NCBI GenBank assembly: GCA_964355005.1
Contig: CAYHBX010000001.1
Location: forward strand, 1-63,759
Source of the DNA: an uncultured Candidatus Saccharibacteria bacterium
GTDB taxonomy: Bacteria > Patescibacteriota > Minisyncoccia > UBA6257 > WO2-44-18
Reading direction: 5' to 3'
Length of the DNA stretch: 63,759 nucleotides
Position 1 is the first letter of the stretch, and each line of letters starts with the position of its first letter. This document shows, one piece after another, positions 2,871-63,759 of the stretch. Below the pieces are notes generated by a model. It searched no databases. It was given only the letters and a program-made list of their open reading frames with translations, and had not been told where the DNA came from. A program made the position numbers and the translations under genes.

Positions 2871-4670
2871 ATGTTTAAACTCGTATCCCATTTCACGCCT
2901 AAAGGAGATCAACTCAAAGCGATCGATGAACTGGTCGCCGGTTTGGAGTCCGGCAAACAGCACCAGACCCTTTTGGGCGTTACGGGTTCCGGAAAAACCT
3001 TTACAATGGCTTCGGTTATAGAAAAAGCCGGCCTGCCGACACTGATCATATCGCCCAACAAGATCCTGGCCGCCCAGCTTTATCAGGAATTTAAACAATT
3101 CTTCCCGAACAGCGCCGTCCACTATTTCGTTTCTTATTACGATTATTACCAACCCGAAGCGTATATTCCGCAGACTAAAACTTATATTCAAAAAGACGCC
3201 CGCATCAACGCCGAGATAGACAAATTGCGCCATTCCGCCATTCAAGCGGTGCTGGGAAGAAAAGACGCGATTGTTATCGCTTCGGTTTCTTGCATCTACG
3301 GCGTCGGCGATCCGAACGAATACCAAAATGCCCGCTTGGAACTAAAAATCGGACAGATCATTGATCCAAAAGACCTGACCCGTCATTTGAACCTTCTGCA
3401 ATACGAGAGAAATGCCGAAGCGCCGCTGTTGGGACAATTTTCCATCGGCAAAGAAAAAACCCGCGTCCACTTGGTTACCGGTGAAGTTGTTGAAATTATT
3501 TTTGAAAAAAGAAAAATTAAATCCATCTCCCGAATTGATCCCAAAACCCCATTGGCTAAACCCTATACCCTATCCACTGTATCCATCTACCCCGCCAAAT
3601 TCTGGGTTACCCCCCAGCATAAAATGAACCTGGCGCTCCGCAATATCAAAACCGAACTTGATGACCGAATAGAGCAACTGCAATCGGCCAATAAATTTGA
3701 GGCCGCGAACCGTCTGGAGAAAAAAACAAATTTTGACATTGAAATGCTGAAGAAGAAGGGATACGTGAACGGCGTAGAAAATTATTCCCGCCATTTGAGC
3801 TTCCGCCAGCCCGGCGAACCGCCAACAACGCTGATCGATTATTTCCCGAAACCATTCCTGTTATTTCTAGATGAATCACATATCGCGGTTCCGCAATTGA
3901 ACGCCATGCAAGAAAGCGATCGCCGCCGGAAGATGAACTTGATCAACTACGGTTTCCGTCTGCCATCAGCGCTGGACAACCGCCCGCTGACATTCGCCGA
4001 ATTCAACTCCAAGATCGGCCAATCTGTTTTCGTATCCGCCACCCCCGGACCATATGAAATGGAAAAAGGCGGCATCGTAGAACAGCTGGTCCGCCCGACC
4101 GGAATCTTGGACCCGGAGATCCAGATCCGCCCCGCGAAAAACCAAGTCCAACATCTGCTCGGCGAGATCCGGAACCGAATATCAAAAAATGAACGCGTGC
4201 TGGCTTTGACGCTGACCAAACGTTCCGCCGAGGACCTGACCGAATATCTTTTGGAGCAGGGAATTAAAACAAAATATCTCCACTCGGAAATCAAAACCCT
4301 GGAACGCCCAAAGGTTCTGCAGGCACTCCGCCGGGGAGATATAGATGTAGTGGTGGGAATTAATCTGCTACGCGAAGGACTAGACCTTCCGGAGGTCAGT
4401 TTGGTAGCGATCCTGGATGCCGACCGCGAAGGCTTCCTGCGTAATTACCGCGGTTTGATCCAGATGGCCGGCCGCGCCGCCCGCTCGATCAATGGAAAAG
4501 TTATTTTTTACGCCGACTTCCTGACAGATTCTATCAAGAAAACAATGCTGGAAACTCTACGCCGCCGGAAAGTCCAGCAAAAATTCAACAAAAAAATGGG
4601 CGTTCGCCCAACTGCCATAAACAAACCACTCACCGAAGAAATGTTCGCCGACTCCGCGAAAGAGGTCTAA
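2871..4670 (+). CDS. uvrB: excinuclease ABC subunit B (short form)
   Basis: GVTGSGKTFTMA Walker A and conserved UvrB blocks throughout. At 599 aa it lacks the C-terminal UVR tail. Confidence 0.95.
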   Translation: MFKLVSHFTPKGDQLKAIDELVAGLESGKQHQTLLGVTGSGKTFTMASVIEKAGLPTLIISPNKILAAQLYQEFKQFFPNSAVHYFVSYYDYYQPEAYIPQTKTYIQKDARINAEIDKLRHSAIQAVLGRKDAIVIASVSCIYGVGDPNEYQNARLELKIGQIIDPKDLTRHLNLLQYERNAEAPLLGQFSIGKEKTRVHLVTGEVVEIIFEKRKIKSISRIDPKTPLAKPYTLSTVSIYPAKFWVTPQHKMNLALRNIKTELDDRIEQLQSANKFEAANRLEKKTNFDIEMLKKKGYVNGVENYSRHLSFRQPGEPPTTLIDYFPKPFLLFLDESHIAVPQLNAMQESDRRRKMNLINYGFRLPSALDNRPLTFAEFNSKIGQSVFVSATPGPYEMEKGGIVEQLVRPTGILDPEIQIRPAKNQVQHLLGEIRNRISKNERVLALTLTKRSAEDLTEYLLEQGIKTKYLHSEIKTLERPKVLQALRRGDIDVVVGINLLREGLDLPEVSLVAILDADREGFLRNYRGLIQMAGRAARSINGKVIFYADFLTDSIKKTMLETLRRRKVQQKFNKKMGVRPTAINKPLTEEMFADSAKEV

Positions 4671-4902
4671 CCCATCACCCCGAATTGGCCGGCGGTCGTC
4701 ATTACGAGTAGTGCGAAGCCCTGCTTGCCGGCAGGCAGGCAGGAATCTTACATTTTAGAGTTATTGTAAGATCGCCGCGGTTTTTAACCCCGCGATGACG
4801 GACATTTTGTGATTTATGGTTTTGTTTTTTGAACATTGTTTAGGATTTAGAGTTTAGAATTTAGGATTTGAAGGAAAGTGTGAGACTCGTGATTACTCCG
4901 AC

Positions 4903-4928
4903 AAAAAACCCGCGCATCTCTGCGCGGG
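4903..4928 (-). terminator. intrinsic terminator of 4935-5414
   Basis: On the minus strand: cccgcgca-gaga-tgcgcggg followed by a T-run, preceded by the conserved AAGTAGGTAGTGCCC. Confidence 0.7.
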
Positions 4929-4934
4929 CACTAC

Positions 4935-5414
4935 CTACTTTTTCTTGCTGAACTCGGCGCGGACCATGTCCACGATCCGGCCGAATTCCATTTCCGTGCA
5001 GCGGTGGCTCTCCAGAGCCAGTCCCAGCTCACTGATCGTGAGCTCGAGGCCGCGATCGATGTCCACCGAGAGGGTGATCCCCTCGCGAAGCATCATCGCC
5101 GTCCGCGTCCGATTGCCGTCCGGCTTGGCAGTCGCCAGCCGGTCGGCCGCCCGGGTCAGAATCTCCATCTCCTCCCCGGGTCCGGTGAAGAACACCTGCT
5201 CGGCGTCCCCGAAGATCGGGAACTCAAGCATCCGGAGAAGCGGACGACCTTCGGCTGTTCTCCGGATCTGAAACTCCGGTCCTCTCCCGGAACCGTACGC
5301 CCGGAAGATCCGGGTGATGGCATCTCGGGGCGACATCTCGCTGACCGCCGGCCGGCCATAAAACACTTCGCCATCCCGGCTGGACACGACGGAACTGCGG
5401 GTGACCTGAATCAT
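4935..5414 (-). CDS. hypothetical protein (GC-rich cassette)
   Basis: ATG preceded by AAAGGAGAAA; has its own promoter and terminator. No family recognised. Confidence 0.6.
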   Translation of the reverse strand: MIQVTRSSVVSSRDGEVFYGRPAVSEMSPRDAITRIFRAYGSGRGPEFQIRRTAEGRPLLRMLEFPIFGDAEQVFFTGPGEEMEILTRAADRLATAKPDGNRTRTAMMLREGITLSVDIDRGLELTISELGLALESHRCTEMEFGRIVDMVRAEFSKKK

Positions 5415-5462
5415 GGCTTTCTCCTTTTCTGCGAGGTTATGAAGTTGTTAAACTGCAATATA

Positions 5463-5492
5463 ATTATAGCATAGTTTTGGCTATTTTGTCAA
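5463..5492 (-). promoter_or_regulatory. near-consensus promoter
   Basis: On the minus strand: TTGACA, 18 nt, TGCTATAAT. Confidence 0.65.
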
Positions 5493-5503
5493 GTCCAGCC
5501 AAC

Positions 5504-5528
5504 AAAAACCCCCGGTTTGACCCGGGGG
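5504..5528 (-). terminator. intrinsic terminator of 5535-5942
   Basis: cccccgg-loop-ccggggg plus a T-run on the minus strand, preceded by the same AAGTAGGTAGTGCCC. Confidence 0.7.
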
Positions 5529-5534
5529 CACTAC

Positions 5535-5942
5535 CTACTTCTTGTCGGGACGAGTCAGGCGATCCAACTCGTCCATCCCCTCATCCATCGCGCAATCGGC
5601 GGCAGACTCGGACTCCTTCTTCGGAGCGGCCGCCTTGTCCAGATCGTCGAGGCGCGCCAACGCCTCCTTCGCTCTCTTCTGGACTTCCGACCCATAAACC
5701 GCGTAGTCGGGGTACTGAACCAGCGATCCCAGAATTCCCCGAATGTCATCAGACCCCAGAACGGCGCCTTCGAAAGCCTTCCGGGCGACGAATTCCGCCC
5801 CGGAAGACTTCAGCATCCGGGCCAGCTTCCGGAACGGGATCAGGTCGGAATAATGCTTCCGCCTCCGCGTCGACTGCTGCCCGCCGCCGTCCTTCTTCTT
5901 GCCCTTCTTCTCTTTCCGGACCTGCGAGCGATCATAGCTCAT
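5535..5942 (-). CDS. hypothetical basic protein (GC-rich cassette)
   Basis: Start moved to the ATG (MSYDRSQ) after AAGAGGAG. Lys/Arg-rich N-terminus, acidic tail. Confidence 0.55.
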   Translation of the reverse strand: MSYDRSQVRKEKKGKKKDGGGQQSTRRRKHYSDLIPFRKLARMLKSSGAEFVARKAFEGAVLGSDDIRGILGSLVQYPDYAVYGSEVQKRAKEALARLDDLDKAAAPKKESESAADCAMDEGMDELDRLTRPDKK

Positions 5943-6010
5943 CTTGCATCTCCTCTTAAATCGGGGTTTCCTCAAAGAACGAAATGGCGCCATGCCATTT
6001 TCTAAGAGCC

Positions 6011-6680: not shown

Positions 6681-6974
6681 TTTTATTGCCCAAATCCTAA
6701 ACAATGGCTGGATCGCAAATTCTAAAGTTTAAAACATTGGAGTATTGGAATTTTGGATTTATTCAGAGTTTAGAAATTAGAGTTTAGGATTTAAAATCCA
6801 CCGTAGCTCTTGCATTTATCCGCGACCTGCTTTAATATACTACGATTGCTTGCGTAAATTTGTCTTTTAATTTACTATTGTCCTATCGTTGATTGTCGGA
6901 TGTTAGTCGTCGGCTCCGACGCTGCTGGTCGGAGAGCCGACCCCTGACGTCGACTTCGTTCGTCAACTAAAAGC

Positions 6975-7955: not shown

Positions 7956-8034
7956 ACAAATGAATTATGAATGATGAATAACGAATTATGCAAAGCCGAA
8001 TTTCTAGCTTAATTCATAATTCTTTATTCGTAAT

Positions 8035-8961
8035 TCAAGCTTTCTGGCACTTCGGGCAGAAATGCGCCGAACGGTCGCCGATCTTTTTTCGAACTATCTT
8101 CGCGCCACATCTTGGGCAGGGCTCACCCTCACGGCCATAAACGCTTCTGTATTCAGTGTAGCCACCCTTCTCGCCGGCGGTGTCACGGAAATCACTGGTA
8201 GAGGTGCCTCGTAATTTCAAAGCCATTTTTAAAACTTTACGCATTGCTTCCCACAACCTCTTTAACTCACTGACCGTCAAACTATCCGCCCGCCTAAACG
8301 GGTGGATTCGGGCTTTCCACAAAATATCATCCGAATAGATATTCCCTATCCCGGCAATCACCTCCGGATCCATTAAAACCTGTTTTATTTTCCTCTTTTC
8401 CTTTTTTATTAAACTTACGAACTCATCAACTGTTAAACTCTTATCCAGCGCATCCGGCCCAAGATTCACCAACTCCGGCAAATTTTCTATCACTTCTTTC
8501 GGTCCCGAAATTATCTTGGCGAATTTCCGCAGATCGGAAAACCCAAGCATTTCCCCATTATCCAAATAGAAGATCAGATGAATGTATTTATTGTAGGGAT
8601 CCTCTACGACCGCTTTCGGTTCTATCGGCACTACCTGACACTTGATACCTGACGCCTGACACTTAATGTCCCACTTCCCCACCAAAAGATGCCCTGTCAT
8701 TTTCAGGTGCGCCAAAAGCATCTTTCCGTGAGTGAGATAAATTAAAATATTTTTCGCCCGCCGTCTCACCTCAACAAATTTTTCTCCCTTCACGAAATCT
8801 TCAAAAGCTGCGACATGCTTATGCGCGATTTTATTACGCGACTGATCCAGCGGATCTTTGATCATTTTCGGCCAATCAAACCAGACGCCAACAATACGGC
8901 GGCCGATAATCTTTTTATTCAAGTCATTAACGACCGTTTGGACTTCCGGTAATTCAGGCAC
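8035..8961 (-). CDS. mutM: formamidopyrimidine-DNA glycosylase
   Basis: MPELPEV N-terminus, H2TH region, C-terminal CPRCG...CPKC zinc finger. Confidence 0.9.
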   Translation of the reverse strand: MPELPEVQTVVNDLNKKIIGRRIVGVWFDWPKMIKDPLDQSRNKIAHKHVAAFEDFVKGEKFVEVRRRAKNILIYLTHGKMLLAHLKMTGHLLVGKWDIKCQASGIKCQVVPIEPKAVVEDPYNKYIHLIFYLDNGEMLGFSDLRKFAKIISGPKEVIENLPELVNLGPDALDKSLTVDEFVSLIKKEKRKIKQVLMDPEVIAGIGNIYSDDILWKARIHPFRRADSLTVSELKRLWEAMRKVLKMALKLRGTSTSDFRDTAGEKGGYTEYRSVYGREGEPCPRCGAKIVRKKIGDRSAHFCPKCQKA

Positions 8962-11624: not shown

Positions 11625-11743
11625 CCCTCACACAACAAAGAGTTTAGTAATTCTCTCTCTGTTCTTTTAAATAAGTTTATACTCTGCATAAACCGGCCAT
11701 CGACTTTTCTGGAATTGCTGCCACGCTCTTTGTTGTGTGAGGG
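11625..11743. mobile_element. 119-bp TIR element (CCCTCACACAACAAAGAG / CTCTTTGTTGTGTGAGGG)
   Basis: Perfect 18-bp terminal inverted repeat. The left end abuts the tsaE start codon. The termini resemble those at 25237, 59259 and 60528. Confidence 0.6.
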
Positions 11744-13447: not shown

Positions 13448-13598
13448 TTACTGAAACCAAGCGATGAATCGCTTGAAGCTCCAAACTCTAATATCTAAGC
13501 TCTAAATAAGTTCAAAATTCTAATGTTCTAAACTTTAGAATTTGTTATTTAGATATTGTTTAGGGTTTAGAATTTAGGATTTAGAATTTGAAATTTTC

Positions 13599-16014: not shown

Positions 16015-16065
16015 CCCCGCACCTAATTGGAGGTGACAAATTTCTCACCGCGCGTAGGTGCGGGG
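16015..16065. repeat. long-form CCCCGCACCTA...TAGGTGCGGGG two-stem hairpin (copy 1)
   Basis: 11-bp outer stem, internal loop, inner stem GGTGA/TCACC. Confidence 0.85.
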
Positions 16066-16122: not shown

Positions 16123-16143
16123 TAAACTCCATCGGCAGACTTG

Positions 16144-16280
16144 CCCCGTCACTAAATTTGCTGCCGCCAGGATGGCGAAATCGGCAAACGCGCCGGGCTT
16201 AAAATCCGGTGGCCTAATAAGCCTTGTGGGTTCGACTCCTACTCCTGGCATAAGCCAGCACAGCAAATTTTAGTGCGGGG
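16144..16280. mobile_element. 137-bp TIR element carrying a complete tRNA-Leu
   Basis: 20-nt arms ccccgtcactaaatttgctg / cagcaaattttagtgcgggg flank the tRNA at 16166-16250. Confidence 0.6.
16166..16250 (+). tRNA. tRNA-Leu (anticodon TAA)
   Basis: Hand-folded cloverleaf: acceptor GCCAGGA/TCCTGGC, anticodon loop CTTAAAA, long variable arm, T-loop TTCGACT. Confidence 0.85.
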
Positions 16281-16341
16281 CGCACAGGATTTAAAATCCG
16301 GTGTCCCTAGGGACGTGTGGGTTCAACTCCCACCCCTTCCA
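16273..16341 (+). pseudogene. 3' portion of an interrupted tRNA-Leu (TAA); matching 5' portion at 16088-16143
   Basis: Anticodon arm CAGGA-TTTAAAA-TCCGG, variable arm, T-arm and acceptor strand CCCTTCC, which pairs with GGGAGGG at 16088-16094 (one G-T pair). Confidence 0.55.
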
Positions 16342-16948: not shown

Positions 16949-16974
16949 CCGCCCCTAACCGGGGCGGTTTTTTT
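16949..16974 (+). terminator. intrinsic terminator
   Basis: ccgcccc-taac-cggggcgg plus T7. Confidence 0.8.
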
Positions 16975-17020
16975 GTTCCACTTTTCCACGCGAGTAACCG
17001 CGTGTTGAGAAAACTGCGAA

Positions 17021-17069
17021 CCCCGCACCTAGTTGGAGGTTAGGACTCTAACCTCTTATAGGTGCGGGG
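17021..17069. repeat. long-form CCCCGCACCTA hairpin (copy 2)
   Basis: Inner stem GGTTAG/CTAACC is compensatory relative to the other copies. Confidence 0.85.
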
Positions 17070-17128: not shown

Positions 17129-17653
17129 ATGTCCGGGCACAACAAATGGTCGCAGATAAAAAATCGTAAAGGCGCCCAAGACGCCAAGAAAAGCCTATCT
17201 TTCTCCAAACTTTTAGCAGTGGTAGCTTTGCACGCGAAAAACGATCCAAGCCCGACAACCAACTTAAAACTCCGGACGGCCATAGACCGGGCCAGAGAAG
17301 GCAATGTGCCTTTGGAGAATATTGAACGCGCCATCAATAGGGCTTCGGAAGCTAAAGATTTGACCGAGGTTTTGATAGAAGCTTACGGACCGGAGGGTGT
17401 AGCGATTATTATTGAAGCGATTACCGACAACAGCAACCGCACAGTCGCCGAAATCCGACATCTTTTGGATGAAAGTGGGGCGAAAATGGCTAACCCGGGA
17501 AGTGTTTTGTGGTCTTTCGAAAAAACCCCCGCTGGGTGGCAAGCAAAATTCCCTCAACCGGTTTCGGAAGCGGGCAAACAAAAACTAACAGAACTCATCG
17601 CGATAATCGAAGAGCACAACGACGTGCAGCGCGTTATCACAAACGCAAACTAG
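17129..17653 (+). CDS. yebC: YebC/PmpR family protein (short)
   Basis: The MSGHNKWSQIKNRKG start is diagnostic. Confidence 0.85.
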   Translation: MSGHNKWSQIKNRKGAQDAKKSLSFSKLLAVVALHAKNDPSPTTNLKLRTAIDRAREGNVPLENIERAINRASEAKDLTEVLIEAYGPEGVAIIIEAITDNSNRTVAEIRHLLDESGAKMANPGSVLWSFEKTPAGWQAKFPQPVSEAGKQKLTELIAIIEEHNDVQRVITNAN

Positions 17654-17740
17654 AATTATGAATTACGAATTAGGAATCACAAACAAAGGAAAGTGCGGGA
17701 AAGCTTCAACGCGTTATTCATTATTCGTTATTCATTATTC

Positions 17741-18229
17741 ATGCGCATACTAGGAATCGACCCGGGAACTTCTAGGATCGGATTCGGCGTGATCGAGACC
17801 GCTGGTGGATTGCGATTGTTAAATTGCGGCACGATCGAGGCCAAAGAAAAAGACCTAGCGGGGAAAATTAAAAATTTTTCCGGCCAATTTTCAAAACTGT
17901 TGTCCGAAACTAACCCGGAACTGGCGGCGATAGAAAAAATATATTTCGCCAAAAACCAAAAAACCGCCTTGGCGGTTGCCCAGGCCCGGGGAGTACTAAT
18001 GTCTCTTCTTATCGACAAAAAGATTCCTATTGTGGAATACGGACCGACGGAAGTTAAATTGAATGTCACGGGTTATGGTTTGGCGGACAAAGCTGCGGTT
18101 GCTAAAATGGTGGCAGCTATCCTAAAAACCAAAATCAATGAAAAATATGACGACGCGGTTGATGCTATTGCCATCGCCATCACCGCTGCCGGAAACCACC
18201 TATTGACTTCACGGAAGACCGATATATAA
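17741..18229 (+). CDS. ruvC: crossover junction endodeoxyribonuclease RuvC
   Basis: MRILGIDPGTSRIGFGVIE. Start moved downstream of the GAAT-word repeat. Confidence 0.9.
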   Translation: MRILGIDPGTSRIGFGVIETAGGLRLLNCGTIEAKEKDLAGKIKNFSGQFSKLLSETNPELAAIEKIYFAKNQKTALAVAQARGVLMSLLIDKKIPIVEYGPTEVKLNVTGYGLADKAAVAKMVAAILKTKINEKYDDAVDAIAIAITAAGNHLLTSRKTDI

Positions 18230-18497: not shown

Positions 18498-18594
18498 CCC
18501 CGCCCTCTAGGCTCGTGAAACAGGAACGGACTGTGATGTTGATTTAAATTCAAAATTACACCTCAATTCTGTTCGACGCGCTTAGAGGGCGGGG
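18498..18594. repeat. 97-nt inverted-repeat element CCCCGCCCTCTA ... TAGAGGGCGGGG
   Basis: 12-nt perfect arms followed by TTTT. The architecture parallels the CCCCGCAC family. Confidence 0.7.
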
Positions 18595-24536: not shown

Positions 24537-25247
24537 ATGGGTAATATATTTCACGTCATTCTATCTCAACCGCTTTTTAACGCGTTGGTGTTTTTATACA
24601 ATACCGTTGCTTTTGAAGACTTAGGTATCGCAATTATTCTTTTAACGGTGCTGATCCGGCTGATTTTATACCCCTTGTTCTATTACAGCTTCAAAAATCA
24701 GACCTTGATGCAGAAGATCCAGCCGGAGATCCAGAAGATCCAGCATGATCATAAAGACGACAAAGAAAAACAAGCTCAAGCGTTGCTGGCGCTCTATAAA
24801 CAACACAAAGTTAATCCGTTTTCCGGATTTTTCCTGATCCTAGTTCAATTGCCGGTCCTTATAGTCCTCTATCGGTTGTTTTTGAGCGGCTTATCGCCGG
24901 AGTCCTTCGTTGATTTGTATTCGTTCATATCTCAACCGGGCGAAGTGCACAATTTGTTTTTGGGCTTGATAGATTTGAAGGCACGCAGTATATTGATTGT
25001 AGTTTTGGCGGCGCTTTTACAGTATTTCCAGGGGAGATTGAGTCTGCCGAAAACCAACAAAAAAGACGATTCACCGATGAGTCGGATGGCGAAGAATATG
25101 GTTTTCATCGGTCCGGTCATCTCTGTATTAATCCTGTCCAGCTTACCGGCCGCCGTTGGCGTCTACTGGCTGACATCATCCGCCTTCTCTATTGCTCAAC
25201 AGCTGATAATCAACAAAAAATTAAGAACCAACCCGTCCCACACATAA
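24537..25247 (+). CDS. yidC: membrane protein insertase YidC (short form)
   Basis: Conserved LTVLIRLILYPL helix, 5 TM helices, position after rnpA. The stop codon lies inside the TIR of the next element. Confidence 0.85.
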   Translation: MGNIFHVILSQPLFNALVFLYNTVAFEDLGIAIILLTVLIRLILYPLFYYSFKNQTLMQKIQPEIQKIQHDHKDDKEKQAQALLALYKQHKVNPFSGFFLILVQLPVLIVLYRLFLSGLSPESFVDLYSFISQPGEVHNLFLGLIDLKARSILIVVLAALLQYFQGRLSLPKTNKKDDSPMSRMAKNMVFIGPVISVLILSSLPAAVGVYWLTSSAFSIAQQLIINKKLRTNPSHT

Positions 25248-25365
25248 CAAGGATCATTATCTCGAAGCCATAGCCTATCTAAACAATTATGATTATTCAA
25301 CTAAAATCGTCGTCTAAATTAAACCAAGGATGTAAAAACGCTTCGCAATCCTTGTTATGTGTGGG
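25237..25365. mobile_element. 129-bp TIR element (CCCACACATAACAAGGAT / ATCCTTGTTATGTGTGGG)
   Basis: 18-bp perfect TIR; homologous along its whole length to 60528-60657. Confidence 0.7.
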
Positions 25366-25800
25366 ATGAACGAGGAATTCAAAACACAAATAAAGACAAT
25401 TCTTGAGATGGTCGGCTTGCATGAGCCGAGTATTGATTTTAACGCGGAGAATCACAAGATCATTATTTTTGTGAATGAAGGCGATTGGCTAAAAAAACAT
25501 CTGCCATACCTGGTGGCCGATTTTGAACGTCTGGCGAATTTATTGGGTAAGAAACATGGCATAGAAGAGAATTTGTTCGTGGATATGAATAATTACCGCA
25601 AAGAGCGGGAAAATATTATCGTTGAGTTGGCTAAGGCCGCCGCCCGCAAAGCAATGACCACCAAAGCGGAAGTTAAATTACCGGCGATGAACGCTTATGA
25701 ACGCCGTCTGATCCACGTGGAACTTTCTACTCGGCCGGACGTGAAAAGCGAAAGTAGCGGCGAAGGCAAGGAACGCTACGTGATCGTTAAGCCGATCTAA
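25366..25800 (+). CDS. jag: Jag/KhpB-type R3H RNA-binding protein
   Basis: The R3H motif YERRLIHVEL and position after yidC. Start taken at the ATG immediately after the TIR. Confidence 0.8.
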   Translation: MNEEFKTQIKTILEMVGLHEPSIDFNAENHKIIIFVNEGDWLKKHLPYLVADFERLANLLGKKHGIEENLFVDMNNYRKERENIIVELAKAAARKAMTTKAEVKLPAMNAYERRLIHVELSTRPDVKSESSGEGKERYVIVKPI

Positions 25801-28118: not shown

Positions 28119-28810
28119 TATTTTTTGAAAATCATGGTTTTACCCGCCGTTTCGATCCTCTTATTAATGTTGGTCACAGAAGCGTTGATTGAAATATCCT
28201 GCCCGGCGGAGATGCCGGCGGTGTCCAATTCCAAAGAATCCGGGTTTTCTACCAATCCCGTTGCCGGGCGGCCGTTAGCGCTCCAGATAAATTGTAGCTG
28301 GGAAAGATTTCGGACATTAAAAAAATACGGAAGCGCTCTGAAAATATCCGGTCCGCCCGTAATTACTACTTCCGGCCGGACTACTGGAATAGTTATCAGT
28401 TTTTCCAGATTCACACCGTTATAATCCACGATCGTTATTTCTACTTCCTGGTCGCCCTGGAAGCCATCGGCTACGAAGGAGATATTTTTTAAGCCGAAGC
28501 CGGATTTTAATTCGTCGCCATTGATCAGCCAGCGGATTTCTTTAGCGGCTAAATTGGCGATTTTTCCGTTATCAATTAATTCCAACGCCATATCAATACG
28601 AGAGCCGTCGATCGGCAGAATTTTTCCTTGATATGCCGGTGGGGCGTAATTATTGGATTGCCAAGTTACCATCAGTTCGGGCGCTTGTTGCGCGGAGCTT
28701 GAGGCGGGGTTTAGGGTATAGCCAATAGCCAATAGGGAAAAAACAAAAACTACAACTAAAATTTGAAAAGCCTTTTTGGCATAATTCGTCATTCTTAATT
28801 CGTTATTCAT
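28118..28810 (-). CDS. membrane-anchored hypothetical protein
   Basis: ATGA overlap with the upstream ORF. The N-terminal residues are encoded by GAAT words. Confidence 0.5.
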   Translation of the reverse strand: MNNELRMTNYAKKAFQILVVVFVFSLLAIGYTLNPASSSAQQAPELMVTWQSNNYAPPAYQGKILPIDGSRIDMALELIDNGKIANLAAKEIRWLINGDELKSGFGLKNISFVADGFQGDQEVEITIVDYNGVNLEKLITIPVVRPEVVITGGPDIFRALPYFFNVRNLSQLQFIWSANGRPATGLVENPDSLELDTAGISAGQDISINASVTNINKRIETAGKTMIFKK

Positions 28811-29154
28811 TGTTTTGGCGCGGGTGCCGGAATTGATCCTTTAGGTTTCTTGATTTTCTGGACTACTTGCAGCTTTTCCGCCTGTTCCGGGTGTCTGTCC
28901 AGATAGATCGTGATTATTGCTCCGAAAGTATAGGCGGGTAAAACGCTCAATCCCGGTATTATCTCTATTATACTACTTATCAACGCGCGCTGACTCTGTA
29001 CCCCTTTTGTTTTCAAATATAACCATTGGGATGGCGCCATAATAACCCAAACAATCAAATTGACTGCCGGGAAGATGCTTAAAACATCAGCGATAATACA
29101 TACGGTAACCCAAATGAAAGCTTCCGGCGTTGATATTTTCGGCTCATTTTGCAT
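28807..29154 (-). CDS. small polytopic membrane protein
   Basis: Three hydrophobic helices, operon context. Confidence 0.5.
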   Translation of the reverse strand: MQNEPKISTPEAFIWVTVCIIADVLSIFPAVNLIVWVIMAPSQWLYLKTKGVQSQRALISSIIEIIPGLSVLPAYTFGAIITIYLDRHPEQAEKLQVVQKIKKPKGSIPAPAPKQ

Positions 29155-44545: not shown

Positions 44546-44596
44546 CCCCGCACCTAGTTGGAGGTGAGAAATTTCTCACCTCTTATAGGTGCGGGG
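44546..44596. repeat. long-form CCCCGCACCTA hairpin (copy 3), acts as terminator of 44576-45390
   Basis: Inner stem GGTGAG/CTCACC. On the minus strand it is followed by T6, and the gene's stop codon lies inside the hairpin. Confidence 0.85.
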
Positions 44597-45763: not shown

Positions 45764-45895
45764 ACTTGGAATCGCCTCTCGCCCTACTGGGCTCGAAACC
45801 TTCAGTCGCTCTTCGCGACTTGCGGCCCGCGGTTCGATTTCTAACTAGAAGGCATGAAATTCTAAACCCGCGCTTTGCGCGGGTTTAGAATTTCA
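45764..45895. repeat. tRNA-flanking module, copy A (partial T-arm copy, conserved cores, covarying hairpin, long hairpin)
   Basis: Aligns block by block with 47304-47434. Confidence 0.75.
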
Positions 45896-47303: not shown

Positions 47304-47434
47304 CCCCGGTAGGAATCGCCTCTCGCCCTGCTGGGCTCGAAACCTACGCCCCCTCTTCGGGGGCTGCGGCCCGCGGTTCGATTCCACAGAAAACATGAAA
47401 TCTAAAACAGGGCATATGCCCTGTTTTAGATTTA
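47304..47434. repeat. tRNA-flanking module, copy B
   Basis: Same architecture as 45764-45895, with compensatory stem changes. Confidence 0.75.
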
Positions 47435-47580: not shown

Positions 47581-47957
47581 TGTTAGTTAAGAAGTAGCTC
47601 TTTCCAAAAAACCAGTCCTGTACTTCATATATCGCATCAATTTGGCGGAGCGAATTTCGAGAAAAATCCGCGACGCGAGGAATGTAGCATACAAGTGTAT
47701 GCGAGTGATGAGCAACAAAGAATTTTTCCAAAATTAGCCCGCCCCTTCGGGGAAGCTAAAAAAATGGGCAATTTCTTTGTTCGCTCACCTCGCCTTGCAT
47801 TTGCAAGGCTTCGGCTCGCTTCGCGAACTCGTCTCATTTTTTAGCTTCCAAATTGACGGGATGTATGAAGTACAGGACCATAAACATCAAATCTGTTTTT
47901 CCGCCATCACTTCGATGGCGGGCAGATTGATCTAATGAGTCATTTGAGGAGAGTAAG
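47581..47957 (+). ncRNA. long structured 5' leader or independent ncRNA (unclassified)
   Basis: A 15-bp closing helix (47614-47628 / 47863-47877), a roughly 20-bp imperfect helix around 47700-47722 / 47770-47790, and several local hairpins. No credible ORF. Confidence 0.45.
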
Positions 47958-49793: not shown

Positions 49794-49824
49794 CCCCCGC
49801 GCAAGTTGCGCGGGGGATTTTTTT
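49794..49824 (+). terminator. intrinsic terminator
   Basis: cccccgcgc-aagt-tgcgcggggg plus T7. Confidence 0.8.
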
Positions 49825-49867
49825 CCAATTTTCTTAGCGAGTATTCGAGCGGCTTGAGAATTGCGAA

Positions 49868-49916
49868 CCCCGCACCTACGAGAGGTGAGGGCGCTCACCT
49901 CTAACTAGGTGCGGGG
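49868..49916. repeat. long-form CCCCGCACCTA hairpin (copy 4)
   Basis: Inner stem GGTGAG-ggcg-CTCACC, followed by the D-loop-like TAAAGGTTTGGCAGCC. Confidence 0.85.
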
Positions 49917-56336: not shown

Positions 56337-56978
56337 ATGAGCGATCCAAGAGAAGGAACGGTTACGAAGGATTTGGCGGAGTCGGCGCTGAAGGGAGCGG
56401 AAGCAGAACTCGCGAAAGCAGAGAGCGCGGCTCGGGTAGTTGCTGATGAGATCGCGAAATCTCGATTGGCTATTCAGGCTTTGCTGGGAAGATTGTATAG
56501 AATTTCGAAAGAATTCCCCACCTGGAAAACCATCAAGCTGGGAACTCGTCCCAACGTGGCAGCTCTCAAGCGGGCGATCATCGCCCAGAAGAACCGGATC
56601 TCCCCCTGGGGTAATGACATTCTGGACAGAATCTCGGTCAGCCCCAAGGAAACCGAGATCGATCTGGTCAGATTGACCGTCGCTGAACTGGGACTCCCCA
56701 AGGGCGGCATCCGAGAGCAGATCTACGAAAAAGCCAAAGAACTCGGCTTGTATCCCTGCCCCGCCGAAGTCGGTCCCCAGCTTCGTCTCCAATACCAGGA
56801 TCAGCCCTCCGGGGAATGGCTCCTGATTGGAATGAAGCCGATCACCGACTCGAGCGGCGACCCGGACGTGTTCCTCGTGGAGCATGGCGGCGGCGATCGC
56901 TGGCTCGGCGCGAATGACGGCTACGCTGACGACTTCTGGGATCCCGGGGACCGCTGGGTGTTCGTCCGTCGCAAGTAG
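56337..56978 (+). CDS. hypothetical protein: short coiled-coil N-terminus plus conserved C-terminal domain (GC-rich cassette)
   Basis: ATG after GGAAACAGG. The C-terminal part from FPTWKT is shared with the gene at 63338. Confidence 0.6.
   Translation: MSDPREGTVTKDLAESALKGAEAELAKAESAARVVADEIAKSRLAIQALLGRLYRISKEFPTWKTIKLGTRPNVAALKRAIIAQKNRISPWGNDILDRISVSPKETEIDLVRLTVAELGLPKGGIREQIYEKAKELGLYPCPAEVGPQLRLQYQDQPSGEWLLIGMKPITDSSGDPDVFLVEHGGGDRWLGANDGYADDFWDPGDRWVFVRRK
56514..56641 (+). repeat. 128-nt block identical to 63632-63759
   Basis: Base-by-base comparison shows no mismatch; identity starts abruptly at ttccccacctgg. Confidence 0.95.
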
Positions 56979-59197: not shown

Positions 59198-59258
59198 TAG
59201 TATTTTATGCCAGAATCTAGCTGATGACCAGAGTTTACCAGTCCGCCGTCGGTTTTAA

Positions 59259-59400
59259 CCCCACACATAAGGAGCATTTCCGTTTTCTGGTCTCTGCCTA
59301 GTACCATTTCATCAATTGGCTACCTAATTTATTTATGCGAACACCAATGTTCAATTCGAAGAAAACGGACGGGCAGAGCAATGCTCCTTATGTGATGGGG
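59259..59400. mobile_element. 142-bp TIR element (CCCCACACATAAGGAGC / GCTCCTTATGTGATGGGG)
   Basis: 17/18-nt arms with one mismatch. The right arm contains the probable start codon of the HAD gene. Confidence 0.6.
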
Positions 59401-59949
59401 TTTGACATGGACGGCGTGATCGTCGATAACACCCAGAATAAAATTCGCCTCGCGAAGCAATTTGGGTTTGATTTGAAGCCGGCCGATGCTGTCGCGGAGC
59501 GGTTTCAGCGGTTGATTCCCGAGACAATCTTAGCCAAGATGAGGCCCATTCTCTATGACAGCGAGGATATGGGGTTGAAGCCGGATATTATTCCGGGAGC
59601 CCGGGAGGGTTTGGAGATGGTCCGGCAATCCGGCCGGCCGTACTTTTTGATCTCTCGGCGGGGTAATTGGATGATGGCCGTTAAGATGCTGGAACATCAG
59701 GGTTTGTGGCCTAAATATTTTAATCGCGACAATGCTTTTTTCGTGATCACTCCGGAGGATAAAGATATTAAAGCTAAGTCGTTAGGCATTAGCGCATACG
59801 TTGATGATCAGCCTAGCGTTTTAGAGAAACTGGCCAGCGTTCCCCAGCGTTTGCTTTTTGACCAATTCCGGCAGTTTGGTGATCTTTCTTTTCCGCACAA
59901 AAAAGTTTCTTCTTGGGAGGAATTGATGGGCTTTCTCGAAATTAGTTAA
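59395..59949 (+). CDS. HAD-superfamily hydrolase-like protein
   Basis: MGFDMDGVIVDN places the DxDG motif at the usual N-terminal position. The longer ORF (59335) reads through the TIR element. Confidence 0.6.
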   Translation: MGFDMDGVIVDNTQNKIRLAKQFGFDLKPADAVAERFQRLIPETILAKMRPILYDSEDMGLKPDIIPGAREGLEMVRQSGRPYFLISRRGNWMMAVKMLEHQGLWPKYFNRDNAFFVITPEDKDIKAKSLGISAYVDDQPSVLEKLASVPQRLLFDQFRQFGDLSFPHKKVSSWEELMGFLEIS

Positions 59950-59971
59950 TAATTTCGTAAGAAAACCATCA

Positions 59972-60075
59972 CCCCGCACATAAATCCATGACCACATCTG
60001 AAGAAAATAAAGCCAAAACAATTTCATTAGATTTCTTTGCAACCATCGGTCGTCTGGTTGGAATTATGTGCGGGG
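59972..60075. repeat. CCCCGCACATAA ... TTATGTGCGGGG inverted-repeat element
   Basis: 12-nt perfect arms, 104 nt overall, 24 nt upstream of the PMM start. Confidence 0.7.
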
Positions 60076-60099
60076 TGCTCAATTTTATAACTACTCGCT

Positions 60100-60552
60100 A
60101 TGCTCACAGATAAAATTGGCATTTTTAAGGCTTACGATGTGCGCGGTCGTTATCCCGATGAGATCAACGAGGCGGCGGTAAAAGAAATCGTTTCCGTCCT
60201 GGTGAAAAAATTCGGCAAGAAAAAAATTGTTGTCGGTCACGACGCCCGCCTTAGTTCAAAATCGCTTTATAAAGCAATTTTGAACGGAATTACGAATAAT
60301 GAATTAAGAATTAAGTACTCAAGCCTCCCCCGCGTAGTTCATAATTCTAGATTCGTTATTCATTCCATCGGCCAATGCTCCACTCCGATGTTTTATTTTT
60401 GGTGTCATAAATTAAAATTACCGGGGATTATGGTCACTGCTTCGCACAACCCGAAAGAATTTAATGGTTTGAAAGTTGTCGGAACCGACGGTTCGATAAT
60501 CAGCGGGACAGAAATAAAAAAATGGATCCCTGCACATAATAAGGATTATTAA
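60100..60552 (+). CDS. phosphomannomutase/phosphoglucomutase, domain I fragment
   Basis: TASHNPKEFNGLK active-site loop. Ends at a TAA supplied by the TIR element. Confidence 0.8.
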   Translation: MLTDKIGIFKAYDVRGRYPDEINEAAVKEIVSVLVKKFGKKKIVVGHDARLSSKSLYKAILNGITNNELRIKYSSLPRVVHNSRFVIHSIGQCSTPMFYFWCHKLKLPGIMVTASHNPKEFNGLKVVGTDGSIISGTEIKKWIPAHNKDY

Positions 60553-60657
60553 CCTGAAGCCGTAGTTTATGTATGCAATCATGTTTATTCAACTAAAACA
60601 GTCGTCTAAATTAAATCAAGGATGCGAAAACGCTTCGCAATCCTTGTTATGTGAGGG
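60528..60657. mobile_element. 130-bp TIR element splitting the PMM/PGM gene in frame
   Basis: Homologous to 25237-25365. Left arm ccctgcacataataaggat, right arm atccttgttatgtgaggg, followed directly by ATG. Confidence 0.75.
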
Positions 60658-61608
60658 ATGGATTATTTAAAGCCCTACGCGGATTTTTTGAGAAAGAAGT
60701 TTAGTCTGCGTGTACCGATGCGGGCGGTTTTTGATTGTTCGAACGGGACCACCGGATTAATTCTGAAAGAATTAATCCGAGAATTACGAATAACGAATAA
60801 CGAATTATGGCGTAATTCTAAATTCATAATTCTTAATTCTACCCCTGATGGGAATTTCCCGGCGCATGGACCGAACCCGATGGTGAAAGGAGCACTGAAT
60901 GATCTTAAAAAAGCCGTTTTGAGAAACGGGGCAGATTTCGGGGCGATCTTTGACGCGGACGGCGACCGGGTGTTTTTTATAGACGACCGAGGGCGGGAAG
61001 TTCCTGCCGACGCGGTTTTGGGTTTGATCAGCCAAGCTTTCCCCGGGCCCATCGTGACCGATATTCGTTCCGGCTATTTGGCTAAAGAGCTGATCGTGGC
61101 CGGAAGAAAAAAGATCATTGAATCCCGGGTTGGCCATACCTTTTTTAAAAGATTAATGAGAAGGAGAAAGTGCGGGTTTGGTGGCGAGATCTCCGGACAT
61201 TACTATTCACCTTTGGCTGACGGAACCTTTTTTGATTCTGGGATCGCCGCGGCGGTTTATTTTGCCAACGAAGTTTCTGAATTAAAGATGTTGGGCGGGA
61301 AACTTTCGGAATGGTTGGATAGTCTGCCGAGATATTTCCGTTCCGGAGAAATTAATTTCCAAGTTGACGACAAAGAAGAGGTAATGGTAAAAGTTGAAAG
61401 GCAATTTAAAAGATCTGCCGGGAAAATTTCCAAACTCGATGGCCTAAAAATGGAATTCGGAAATGCCGCGCGCTCCGAAGCCTTGGCGGAGGAGTGGTGG
61501 TTCAGCTTGCGGCCGTCCCAAACAGAGAATTTTTTGCGTTTGAATTTAGAAGCGAAGGACGAAAAAATGTTCAGGCGCCGCCTTGCTGAATTGAAGCGCC
61601 TGATTTAA
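60658..61608 (+). CDS. phosphomannomutase/phosphoglucomutase, domains II-IV fragment
   Basis: FDADGDR metal loop and GGEISGH sugar loop. Same reading frame as 60100-60552. Confidence 0.8.
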   Translation: MDYLKPYADFLRKKFSLRVPMRAVFDCSNGTTGLILKELIRELRITNNELWRNSKFIILNSTPDGNFPAHGPNPMVKGALNDLKKAVLRNGADFGAIFDADGDRVFFIDDRGREVPADAVLGLISQAFPGPIVTDIRSGYLAKELIVAGRKKIIESRVGHTFFKRLMRRRKCGFGGEISGHYYSPLADGTFFDSGIAAAVYFANEVSELKMLGGKLSEWLDSLPRYFRSGEINFQVDDKEEVMVKVERQFKRSAGKISKLDGLKMEFGNAARSEALAEEWWFSLRPSQTENFLRLNLEAKDEKMFRRRLAELKRLI

Positions 61609-63337: not shown

Positions 63338-63759
63338 GTGAGCGGAAAAAAGAAGACGGAAGAAGATGTCGAGAAGAGTCAGAATCTGACCGAAGATGTG
63401 ATCGGAGCTCTCCGCGAGGAGAATGAAAGACTTCAGAAGTTGGTGGATGGCTCGGCCCCAAAGGAGCTGACCAAGTCCGTGCTGGAGGGCGCCCATGCGC
63501 AACTGCGGAAGATCAGCGACGGCGCCGGAGATCTGATGAGGGAATCGGCCAAAGCGTGCGATTCCATCACGGCTCTGCTCTCCAAGCTGGAGGTGACCAA
63601 GGTCAGCGAGATCAATGCCTCGGCTTGCAAGTTCCCCACCTGGAAAACCATCAAGCTGGGAACTCGTCCCAACGTGGCAGCTCTCAAGCGGGCGATCATC
63701 GCCCAGAAGAACCGGATCTCCCCCTGGGGTAATGACATTCTGGACAGAATCTCGGTCAG
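63338..63759 (+). CDS. paralogue of 56337-56978 with a different, longer coiled-coil N-terminus (runs off window end)
   Basis: GTG 7 nt after AAGGAGG; open to the window end. The last 128 nt are identical to 56514-56641. Confidence 0.6.
   Translation, partial: MSGKKKTEEDVEKSQNLTEDVIGALREENERLQKLVDGSAPKELTKSVLEGAHAQLRKISDGAGDLMRESAKACDSITALLSKLEVTKVSEINASACKFPTWKTIKLGTRPNVAALKRAIIAQKNRISPWGNDILDRISV

Follow-up and report, generated by a model that had tools for sequence, protein, structure and literature searches.

The window analysed here is a 63,759-nt stretch (positions 1–63,759) of contig CAYHBX010000001.1 (assembly GCA_964355005.1) from an uncultured Candidatus Saccharibacteria bacterium. 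Near its end, two open reading frames (ORFs) that encode the parts of a phosphomannomutase/phosphoglucomutase (PMM/PGM) are separated by a 130-nt element with inverted ends (Table 1), which we interpret as a mobile element that landed on the start codon of the second gene. The upstream ORF encodes domain I (PF02878) and the downstream ORF domains II–IV (PF02879, PF02880 and PF00408), and the pair is predicted to specify a four-domain alpha-D-phosphohexomutase with the catalytic Ser loop in domain I, the activity of the split form being likewise a prediction. Full-length alignment of a fused relative to 5kl0 and 1k35 (solved structures of a PGM and a PMM/PGM) places the break in the linker between domains 1 and 2. 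Both ORFs are intact and retain their catalytic motifs, with 64–76% identity to the nearest homologues (P0002–P0008), and the synteny FtsK / NT5C-like / PMM / FolD is shared by three relatives (L001, L031 and L032).

The inverted ends of the element, CCCTGCACATAATAAGGAT and ATCCTTGTTATGTGAGGG, are 18–19 nt long, the left arm having one extra base. The two ORFs share a frame, with 105 nt between stop and restart, and the frame of the N-terminal half (N-half), read across the element as KWIPAHNKDY*...*...*GMDYLK (asterisks denote stops), meets three stops. The last 8 codons of the domain I ORF together with its stop (PAHNKDY*; TAA at 60550–60552) are encoded by the left arm, and the right arm ends in GTGAGGG, directly followed by ATG. 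A first-pass annotation of this DNA had described this arrangement, and all of it was verified; it had overlooked a direct repeat, ATGGA(T), at 60522–60527 and 60658–60663.

The same annotation had concluded that insertion of the element split an intact PMM/PGM gene into two translatable pieces; the halves lie in one frame, the element gives the first half its stop, and two close relatives (P0004 and P0008) have a fused gene, all of which would fit that view. Comparison with orthologous PMM genes showed instead that relatives are split without the element, so that the interruption is not of its making. Among the best 120 homologues of the C-terminal half (C-half; 45–76% identity, Patescibacteria/Parcubacteria), 115 are stand-alone proteins of ~300 aa that begin M-[D/N]-Y ~25 residues ahead of the DCSNG motif, and all of the best 120 N-half homologues are stand-alone domain-I proteins (125–173 aa), many of them ending KKWII* or KWIT*. 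The split is also free of the element in three syntenic relatives (L001, L031 and L032), where the halves meet at the string AATGGATTATTTAA with stop and start overlapping: one frame has AAA TGG ATT ATT TAA and the second ATG GAT TAT, the site across the three reading AATGGATTAT(T/C)T(A/G)A. Removal of the element and one ATGGAT from the window yields the same string, so these three loci represent empty sites and the window an insertion at an existing gene boundary. The PMM/PGM split thus appears to predate the element, a large group of Patescibacteria having already had two genes.

The ancestral halves overlap by 13 nt, and both inserts at this junction, the 130-nt element and a 67-nt element described below, have lengths of 3n+1, which cancels the one-base offset of the ancestral frames so that both halves in the window appear in one frame. 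Excision of the 130-nt element leaves a frameshifted, overlapping pair rather than a single ORF, and the fused relatives owe their fusion to the 67-nt element, read in frame. An element-made split is therefore highly improbable. Because the split came first, the survival of an essential enzyme needs no special explanation, except for how the C-half stays translated. Programmed translational bypass of the T4 gene 60 type was rejected, as skipping the element would give the ancestral frameshifted overlap (WII*) and no fusion; programmed −1 frameshifting on the A-run before TGG was likewise rejected, the run being missing in L001 and L032.

The junction of the split gene appears to be an insertion hot spot. 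The loci L003–L006 have a fused PMM of 444–463 aa, because a different, 67-nt element at the identical point reads through in frame; it has the form CCCGTTAGAAAC...GTTTCTAACGGG, carries the same ATGGA(T) flanks and is open in frame (...WIPLETAPALARPGGALGRAVSNGMDYL). Further occupancy is seen in other lineages as N-half tails of W(I/F)PLE (P0261, P0262 and P0267) or NSPHT* (P0352) and as VVSNGM extensions at the N-terminus of the C-half (P0014 and P0026). The C-half gene starts ATG GAT or ATG AAT, which is the preferred target of the element family. In L034 and L030 the halves are parted by 2.5 kb of DNA, a four-gene cassette that has a promoter and a terminator of its own, so the PMM halves can even be unlinked; the cassette has no ATGGA duplication and was set aside as a different kind of insertion. 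In L034 (GCA_964503795.1) it occupies 3511–6000, with a HicA toxin among its genes, a TTGACA-17-TATAAT promoter and a terminator hairpin; L030 has it too.

The PMM genes themselves hold another type of repeat. AT-rich hairpin repeats with ~7-nt units (GAATTAC/GAATAAT...) lie at 60285–60364, 60779–60842, 1707–1796, 7960–8039, 17651–17743 and 28768–28811; one in-frame copy stands inside each PMM half (ITNNELRIKYSSLPRVVHNSRFVI and RITNNELWRNSKFIILNS) and others just upstream of gene starts. At the position of the domain-I copy, a different insert, of 14 aa, is found in P0004, and no insert in L001 or P0008.

Evidence that the 130-nt element is mobile came from its copies at non-orthologous loci, its presence or absence in relatives and target-site duplications, in agreement with the first-pass suggestion of a miniature mobile element. 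We assign it, on sequence grounds, to the MITEs (miniature transposable elements with inverted repeats), non-autonomous transposons with terminal inverted repeats. The arm motif occurs 16 times in the window versus 7.0 ± 2.5 times in shuffled sequence, and none of 100 shuffles reached 16. A second copy of the same subfamily lies between yidC (24537–25247) and jag (25366–25800); it has perfect 19-nt arms, supplies the yidC stop (25245–25247) from its left arm and adjoins the jag ATG. Its location and its relation to the two genes were as first annotated, and its identity to the PMM copy is 85% over 128 nt rather than the ~80% estimated by eye. This copy is absent in L049 and L050 (Jag 87% and 80% identical, respectively), where the yidC ORF continues beyond the jag ATG for 56 nt. 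Arm patterns were run against public contigs from genomes and metagenomes, and the elements returned were all 123–147 nt long. Arms of the form CCCnCACATAACAAGGAT recur at unrelated loci, with true matches only in Patescibacteria and with interiors that differ between subfamilies; the element in L017 has the interior of the window copies (79–83% identity) and adjoins an unrelated FAD oxidoreductase gene. A scan of viral contigs with the element arms gave no matches.

Flanking repeats were scored for 18 elements from three arm families, of which L003 and L005 share one insertion, leaving 17 independent cases. Perfect 5/5 repeats flank 13 of the 18 (12 of the 17 independent), as ATGAA in nine, ATGGA in three and GTCAA in one; two more elements have flanks matching at 4 of 5 positions, and in one the flank is cut by the contig end. 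The perfect repeats are thus nearly all ATGAA or ATGGA at a gene start codon, and the GTCAA case indicates that the repeat follows the target and is not carried by the element. The base between the left repeat and CCC is always T, apart from two elements with C. Among ten ATGAA-flanked elements, the left repeat is followed by T throughout, and the right repeat by A in eight and by T in one, a contig end cutting off that base in the last; this pattern points to a 5-bp duplication plus an element-borne T, and a 6-bp duplication (ATGGAT) was rejected in its favour. The T at 60527 accordingly probably belongs to the element. Since ATGGA flanks the PMM copy on both sides, the restart ATG is duplicated target and not element sequence: the earlier statement that the element supplies both stop and restart was right as to the stop, in the left arm, and wrong as to the restart, which is the C-half's own ATG duplicated on insertion. 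The element presumably moves by DDE-type transposition. In L043, TCCCGCGCATACC at 5687–5710, directly after the right duplication ATGAA, resembles the left end of a second element and may reflect tandem insertion at one target.

An assembly artefact or chimeric join would be conceivable in a metagenome-type assembly, the more so as the PMM copy was recovered in no independent contig. The yidC–jag copy, by comparison, is base-for-base identical in L051, an independent assembly of a near-identical strain, which argues against misassembly. Around the PMM copy the 5-bp duplication is clean, and relatives have this site either empty or occupied by another element; more than 15 related elements in other assemblies share its anatomy. 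We give an artefact next to no chance.

The family-wide data also bear on orientation. The right end was defined as the one with the sub-terminal hairpin, a pairing of GCAATCCTTG with a CAAGGAT-like segment of the interior. The inner right arm of the PMM copy can form this hairpin as an alternative to pairing with the left arm. The GCAATCCTTG family has 13 distinct members, 12 of them with an identifiable downstream gene, and the hairpin end faces that gene in all 12; the thirteenth, in L042, has no ATG gene at its right end. When the family is aligned, the arms are invariant, the interior is poorly conserved and an internal ATG is nearly invariant. This ATG opens an ORF of 22–33 codons that leaves by way of the right arm (QSLLC[V/G/E]G). 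The longest ORF of the 130-nt element has 33 codons, with a second in-frame ATG, at 60569, upstream of the start at 60581. The distance from ATG to right end is constant within subfamilies (77 nt or 74 nt), the left part varying in length, and counts by codon position revealed no third-position bias that would betray coding selection on the peptide; together these observations indicate that frame and length are conserved, and not the peptide.

The exits of these ORFs are of several kinds. In six elements (the yidC–jag copy, L017, L027, L048, L037 and the element at 11625–11743), the ORF has an exact ATGA overlap with the gene ATG; in the yidC–jag copy, the ORF is at 25289–25369, its TGA overlapping the jag ATG. 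In L028 and in the element at 59259–59399, the exit ORF is fused in frame to the downstream gene. The ORF of the PMM copy leaves via the right arm and reaches 10 nt into the C-half gene, where the ancestral TAA stops it, so that it finishes in the ancestral W-I-I-stop and recreates the original 13-nt overlap geometry. Other arm families have comparable ORFs: that of the CCCGTTAGA family begins at the duplicated left ATG and spans the element, and a TAA in the right arm ends it 4 nt before the gene ATG; that of the CCCCGCACATAAAT family (59972–60075, L038 and L011) has 41–48 codons, starts at an ATG immediately within the left arm and leaves through the right arm. Of 15 elements, 13 have an ORF that starts with ATG, is at least 20 codons long and exits the right arm; interior shuffles yield such an ORF with a probability of 0.15–0.68 per element. 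Taking one representative per subfamily, we estimate P at ~0.01 for any exit ORF and ~0.003 for the exact ATGA overlaps.

As transcripts, the elements would be strongly folded. Hairpin folding of both strands of both window copies gave z = −4.7 to −7.3 relative to shuffles, arm position 4 covaries on the two sides (CG in 7, AU in 3 and UA in 2), and the flanks add 2 bp to the consensus stem, so that the start codon has its A and U paired. These properties might also fit an element that is primarily a structured RNA serving the host, such as a site for RNase III or other processing or an operon-punctuating hairpin, rather than a transposon: the hairpins are very stable with compensatory arm changes, the elements stand exactly at cistron boundaries, the sub-terminal hairpin offers an alternative fold, and, as an analogy, RNase III is reported to bind or cleave the Correia hairpin (PMC2649163). 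A sigma-70 promoter scan found no promoter inside the element and listed the sub-terminal hairpin as terminator-like on both strands. Rfam 15 at gathering score identified four tRNAs only in the whole window, and at a permissive E-value nothing relevant in 59200–60800, the best match near the element having E = 6.9. The lack of an Rfam match, interiors that are unconserved between subfamilies, and target duplications together with presence/absence in close relatives, which are marks of insertion events, make a purely host-serving RNA unlikely. The two ideas are compatible in part, as the transcript of a MITE can also be processed.

How the downstream gene continues to be expressed is the point on which a further alternative turns, namely that insertion disabled the C-half and left the PMM genes as a decaying pseudogene pair. 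The downstream ATG has no Shine–Dalgarno sequence, sits at the foot of an 18-bp stem and lies 105 nt past the stop. Set against this are the intact state and the homology of both ORFs, the occurrence of elements of this type ahead of jag and tsaE, which we expect to be needed, and the family-wide conservation of orientation and ORF, which argues for a mechanism of tolerance; decay of the pair is accordingly very unlikely. The earlier proposal that the ends are built so that genes survive insertion fits these family-wide data, except that the PMM gene was not divided by the element. A Shine–Dalgarno-like motif is present at ~10 of 51 approximate gene starts in the window, and TAnnnT 5–9 nt upstream at 14, which suggests that initiation in this genome depends largely on accessibility or on leaderless or otherwise non-Shine–Dalgarno starts. 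TATAAT-like boxes 6–7 nt upstream of ATG occur at many starts (e.g. 51001, 35969, 2378 and 37684). Among the elements, GAGGAGG near the internal ATG was found in L038 only.

Taken together, these data make it quite probable that a MITE widespread in Patescibacteria inserted onto the start codon of an already separate domain II–IV gene, with a relay through the internal ORF as the putative means by which that gene is still translated. On this account, the 5-bp ATGGA was duplicated as the element inserted onto the start codon of the C-half; the end of domain I would have changed from WII* to WIPAHNKDY*, its last residue and stop being replaced, and the start of domains II–IV would have been displaced 136 nt downstream. 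The family, together with at least two others that have different arms and T-CCC...GGG tips, would favour ATGAA or ATGGA at gene starts, a preference by which the duplication regenerates the start codon. In the transcript, an 18–20-bp stem would hide the downstream AUG, and an AUG kept in the A/U-rich middle of the element would open a short ORF that is translated through the right arm. This ORF would terminate on or just past the downstream start, by ATGA overlap or, in the PMM copy, at the old TAA, and its translation would unwind the stem and pass ribosomes to the gene by termination–reinitiation. The relay is the best-supported, if unproven, account of continued downstream expression.

Several observations weigh against parts of this interpretation. 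Two of the 18 elements, the yidC–jag copy included, have no flanking repeat. A limited search of ~290 kb of related DNA, which included distant arm pairs, found neither a transposase nor a full-length parent with these arms, and the scans of the public collections returned elements of 123–147 nt only, with no longer parent. The occupancy of start codons could result from selection alone rather than from target preference. As for the relay, L038 and L045 have no exiting ORF and that of L046 is frame-shifted; neither a −10 box 6–8 nt upstream of the internal ATG nor a Shine–Dalgarno sequence, both sought by eye, is consistent across the family; and the statistic for the relay ORF is modest, suggestive rather than decisive.

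A broader proposal, which we advance tentatively and hold at somewhat less than even chances, is that a superfamily of at least three arm families with T-CCC...GGG tips and ATGRA duplication homes to start codons, brings its own relay ORF and has repeatedly remodelled the PMM junction, re-fusing the gene in some lineages. If the family-wide pattern holds, a transposon could persist in tiny, gene-dense genomes by using start codons as safe landing sites, with the translational relay as its payment. Independently of this, the split of an alpha-D-phosphohexomutase into domain I and domains II–IV is documented here as conserved over a large clade of Patescibacteria, and the 67-nt element shows that, in nature, a mobile element can join a split gene together again in frame. 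There are also consequences for annotation: the elements add spurious N-terminal extensions (MCGM..., MWGM...) to gene calls in these metagenome-assembled genomes, and the split gives the PMM halves the label 'hypothetical protein' in public records.

Table 1 Coordinates of the split PMM/PGM genes, the 130-nt element and related elements in the window.
Feature	Positions	Strand	Description
PMM/PGM domain I gene	60100–60552	+	150 aa; active-site TASHNP; stand-alone domain-I homologues known
Left target-site duplication, ATGGA	60522–60526	.	Empty sites in L001, L031 and L032
Putative MITE	60528–60657	+	130 nt; left arm 60528–60546, right arm 60640–60657
Internal ORF, putative relay	60581–60670	+	29 codons, MFIQLKQSSKLNQGCENASQSLLCEGWII*
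Sub-terminal hairpin	60617–60646	+	CAAGGATGCGAA-AACGC-TTCGCAATCCTTG; alternative pairing of inner right arm
PMM/PGM domains II–IV gene	60658–61608	+	316 aa; begins with the right target-site duplication, ATGGA (5 nt)
Second copy, same subfamily	25237–25365	+	Between yidC and jag
Related element	11625–11743	-	Arms CCCTCACACAACAAAGAG; flanks ATGAA/ATGAA; adjoins ATG (11624) of TsaE-like gene
Related element	59259–59399	+	Arms CCCCACACATAAGGAGC; ~11 codons into NT5C-like gene; uninterrupted site in L003
Related element	59972–60075	+	Arms CCCCGCACATAAAT; NT5C–PMM spacer

Three further elements of related type lie in the window. In the one ahead of the TsaE-like gene, the internal ORF (11689–11621) finishes in an ATGA overlap. 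The element at 59259–59399 is truly inserted within a coding region, and the remainder of the NT5C-like gene, which is in frame with element ATGs at 59335, 59347 and 59395, would restart from an element-borne ATG. An ORF of 41 codons (59988–60113) crosses the element at 59972–60075 and stops 11 nt past the ATG of PMM domain I. A 97-nt element at 18498–18594, with arms CCCCGCCCTCTAGGC / GCTTAGAGGGCGGGG, shares the CCC...GGG tips and has a different arm sequence. GC-clamped hairpins (CCCCGCACCTA...TAGGTGCGGGG) at 16015–16065 and 44546–44596 are 88% identical to each other, and a 61-nt repeat at 16971–17031 and 49818–49878 ends in GAACCCCGCACCTA; these hairpins and the 61-nt repeat may be further relatives of the CCC...GGG elements. 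The tRNA gene at 16166–16250 lies within 16143–16281, bracketed by 21-nt inverted repeats (GCCCCGTCACTAAATTTGCTG / CAGCAAATTTTAGTGCGGGGC) whose tips resemble the MITE arms.

Other repeats were also seen. A 128-nt exact repeat occurs at 56514–56641 and 63632–63759, the second copy running off the window end and sitting in a paralogue of the 213-aa gene at 56337–56978. Short-period repeats of the TTTAGGATTTAGAG type are present in four copies (2797–2860, 4806–4869, 6729–6792 and 13526–13589) with 64–75% identity to the reference copy. A 72-nt repeat (86%) at 45768–45839 and 47312–47383 stands beside two tRNA genes. Separately, 47615–47878 holds two 31-nt inverted repeats with 202 nt between them.

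Compared with known systems, the 130-nt element conforms in its sequence to the structural definition of a MITE, save for a known autonomous partner. Like other bacterial MITEs (PMC10969869, PMC2229807), elements here are short (67–155 nt), have terminal inverted repeats, target duplications and no transposase, occur in several copies per genome with presence/absence variation, and in some cases hold small ORFs or form in-frame fusions. The elements described here also have a 5-bp duplication that regenerates ATG at start codons, a strict gene-facing orientation and a conserved exit ORF, none of which is mentioned in PMC10969869. The text of that review has no occurrence of 'start codon', 'stop codon' or 'Patescibacteria', and a limited literature search for MITEs of Candidate Phyla Radiation bacteria, for start-codon-targeting MITEs and for split PMM in Parcubacteria gave nothing relevant, an absence that is no proof of novelty. 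Within that limited search, we found no earlier description of three features: the occupation of start codons with a duplication that restores the ATG, the shared orientation and the conservation of an exit ORF.

Other families of small palindromic elements were considered and rejected. The perfect inverted arms, with a 5-bp duplication on both sides, do not agree with derivatives of IS200/IS605. Palindromic elements derived from those insertion sequences lack terminal inverted repeats and target duplication and insert 3' of a fixed tetra- or pentanucleotide. REP/BIME/REPIN sequences are 20–40-nt palindromes without target duplication and are associated with RAYT, in contrast to the 130-nt element with its target duplication; the check for RAYT covered the ORF lists. 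ERIC did not fit either, by arms, duplication length or read-through test. Multidomain enzymes made as separate polypeptides broken at a domain boundary are familiar among the split genes of reduced genomes, e.g. in Nanoarchaeum. Unlike those, the PMM halves usually lie side by side with an overlap; some lineages have them re-fused, or parted by inserted DNA. The overlap of the TGA of an internal ORF with the downstream ATG in six elements resembles ATGA-type overlapping cistrons, with the difference that the upstream coupling cistron would in this case belong to a mobile element.

The arms of Correia elements are 26 bp long and their duplication is TA; these elements act chiefly through the promoters that they create and, to our knowledge, show no start-codon targeting or relay ORF. 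We likewise know of no start-codon preference among the Rickettsia palindromic elements (RPEs). The assignment to Correia elements (CREE/NEMIS, Neisseria) was rejected because the CCCnCACATAACAAGGAT arms are unrelated in sequence, the duplication is a 5-bp ATGRA and the phylum is different; that to RPEs was rejected because the sequences are unrelated and the 130-nt copy, with its three in-frame stops, has no read-through, an open read-through frame being confined to the unrelated 67-nt element. Correia elements are 100–155-bp hairpin MITEs that lie near genes, are co-transcribed and affect the expression of their neighbours (PMC2649163), and RPEs are palindromic, tolerated inside coding sequence or at its edge and read into protein (PMC10969869), a behaviour shown here by the 67-nt element responsible for the re-fused PMM of L003 and L005 and by the element at 59259–59399. 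Of the known systems, Correia elements (PMC2649163) and RPEs (PMC10969869) are the closest functional parallels.

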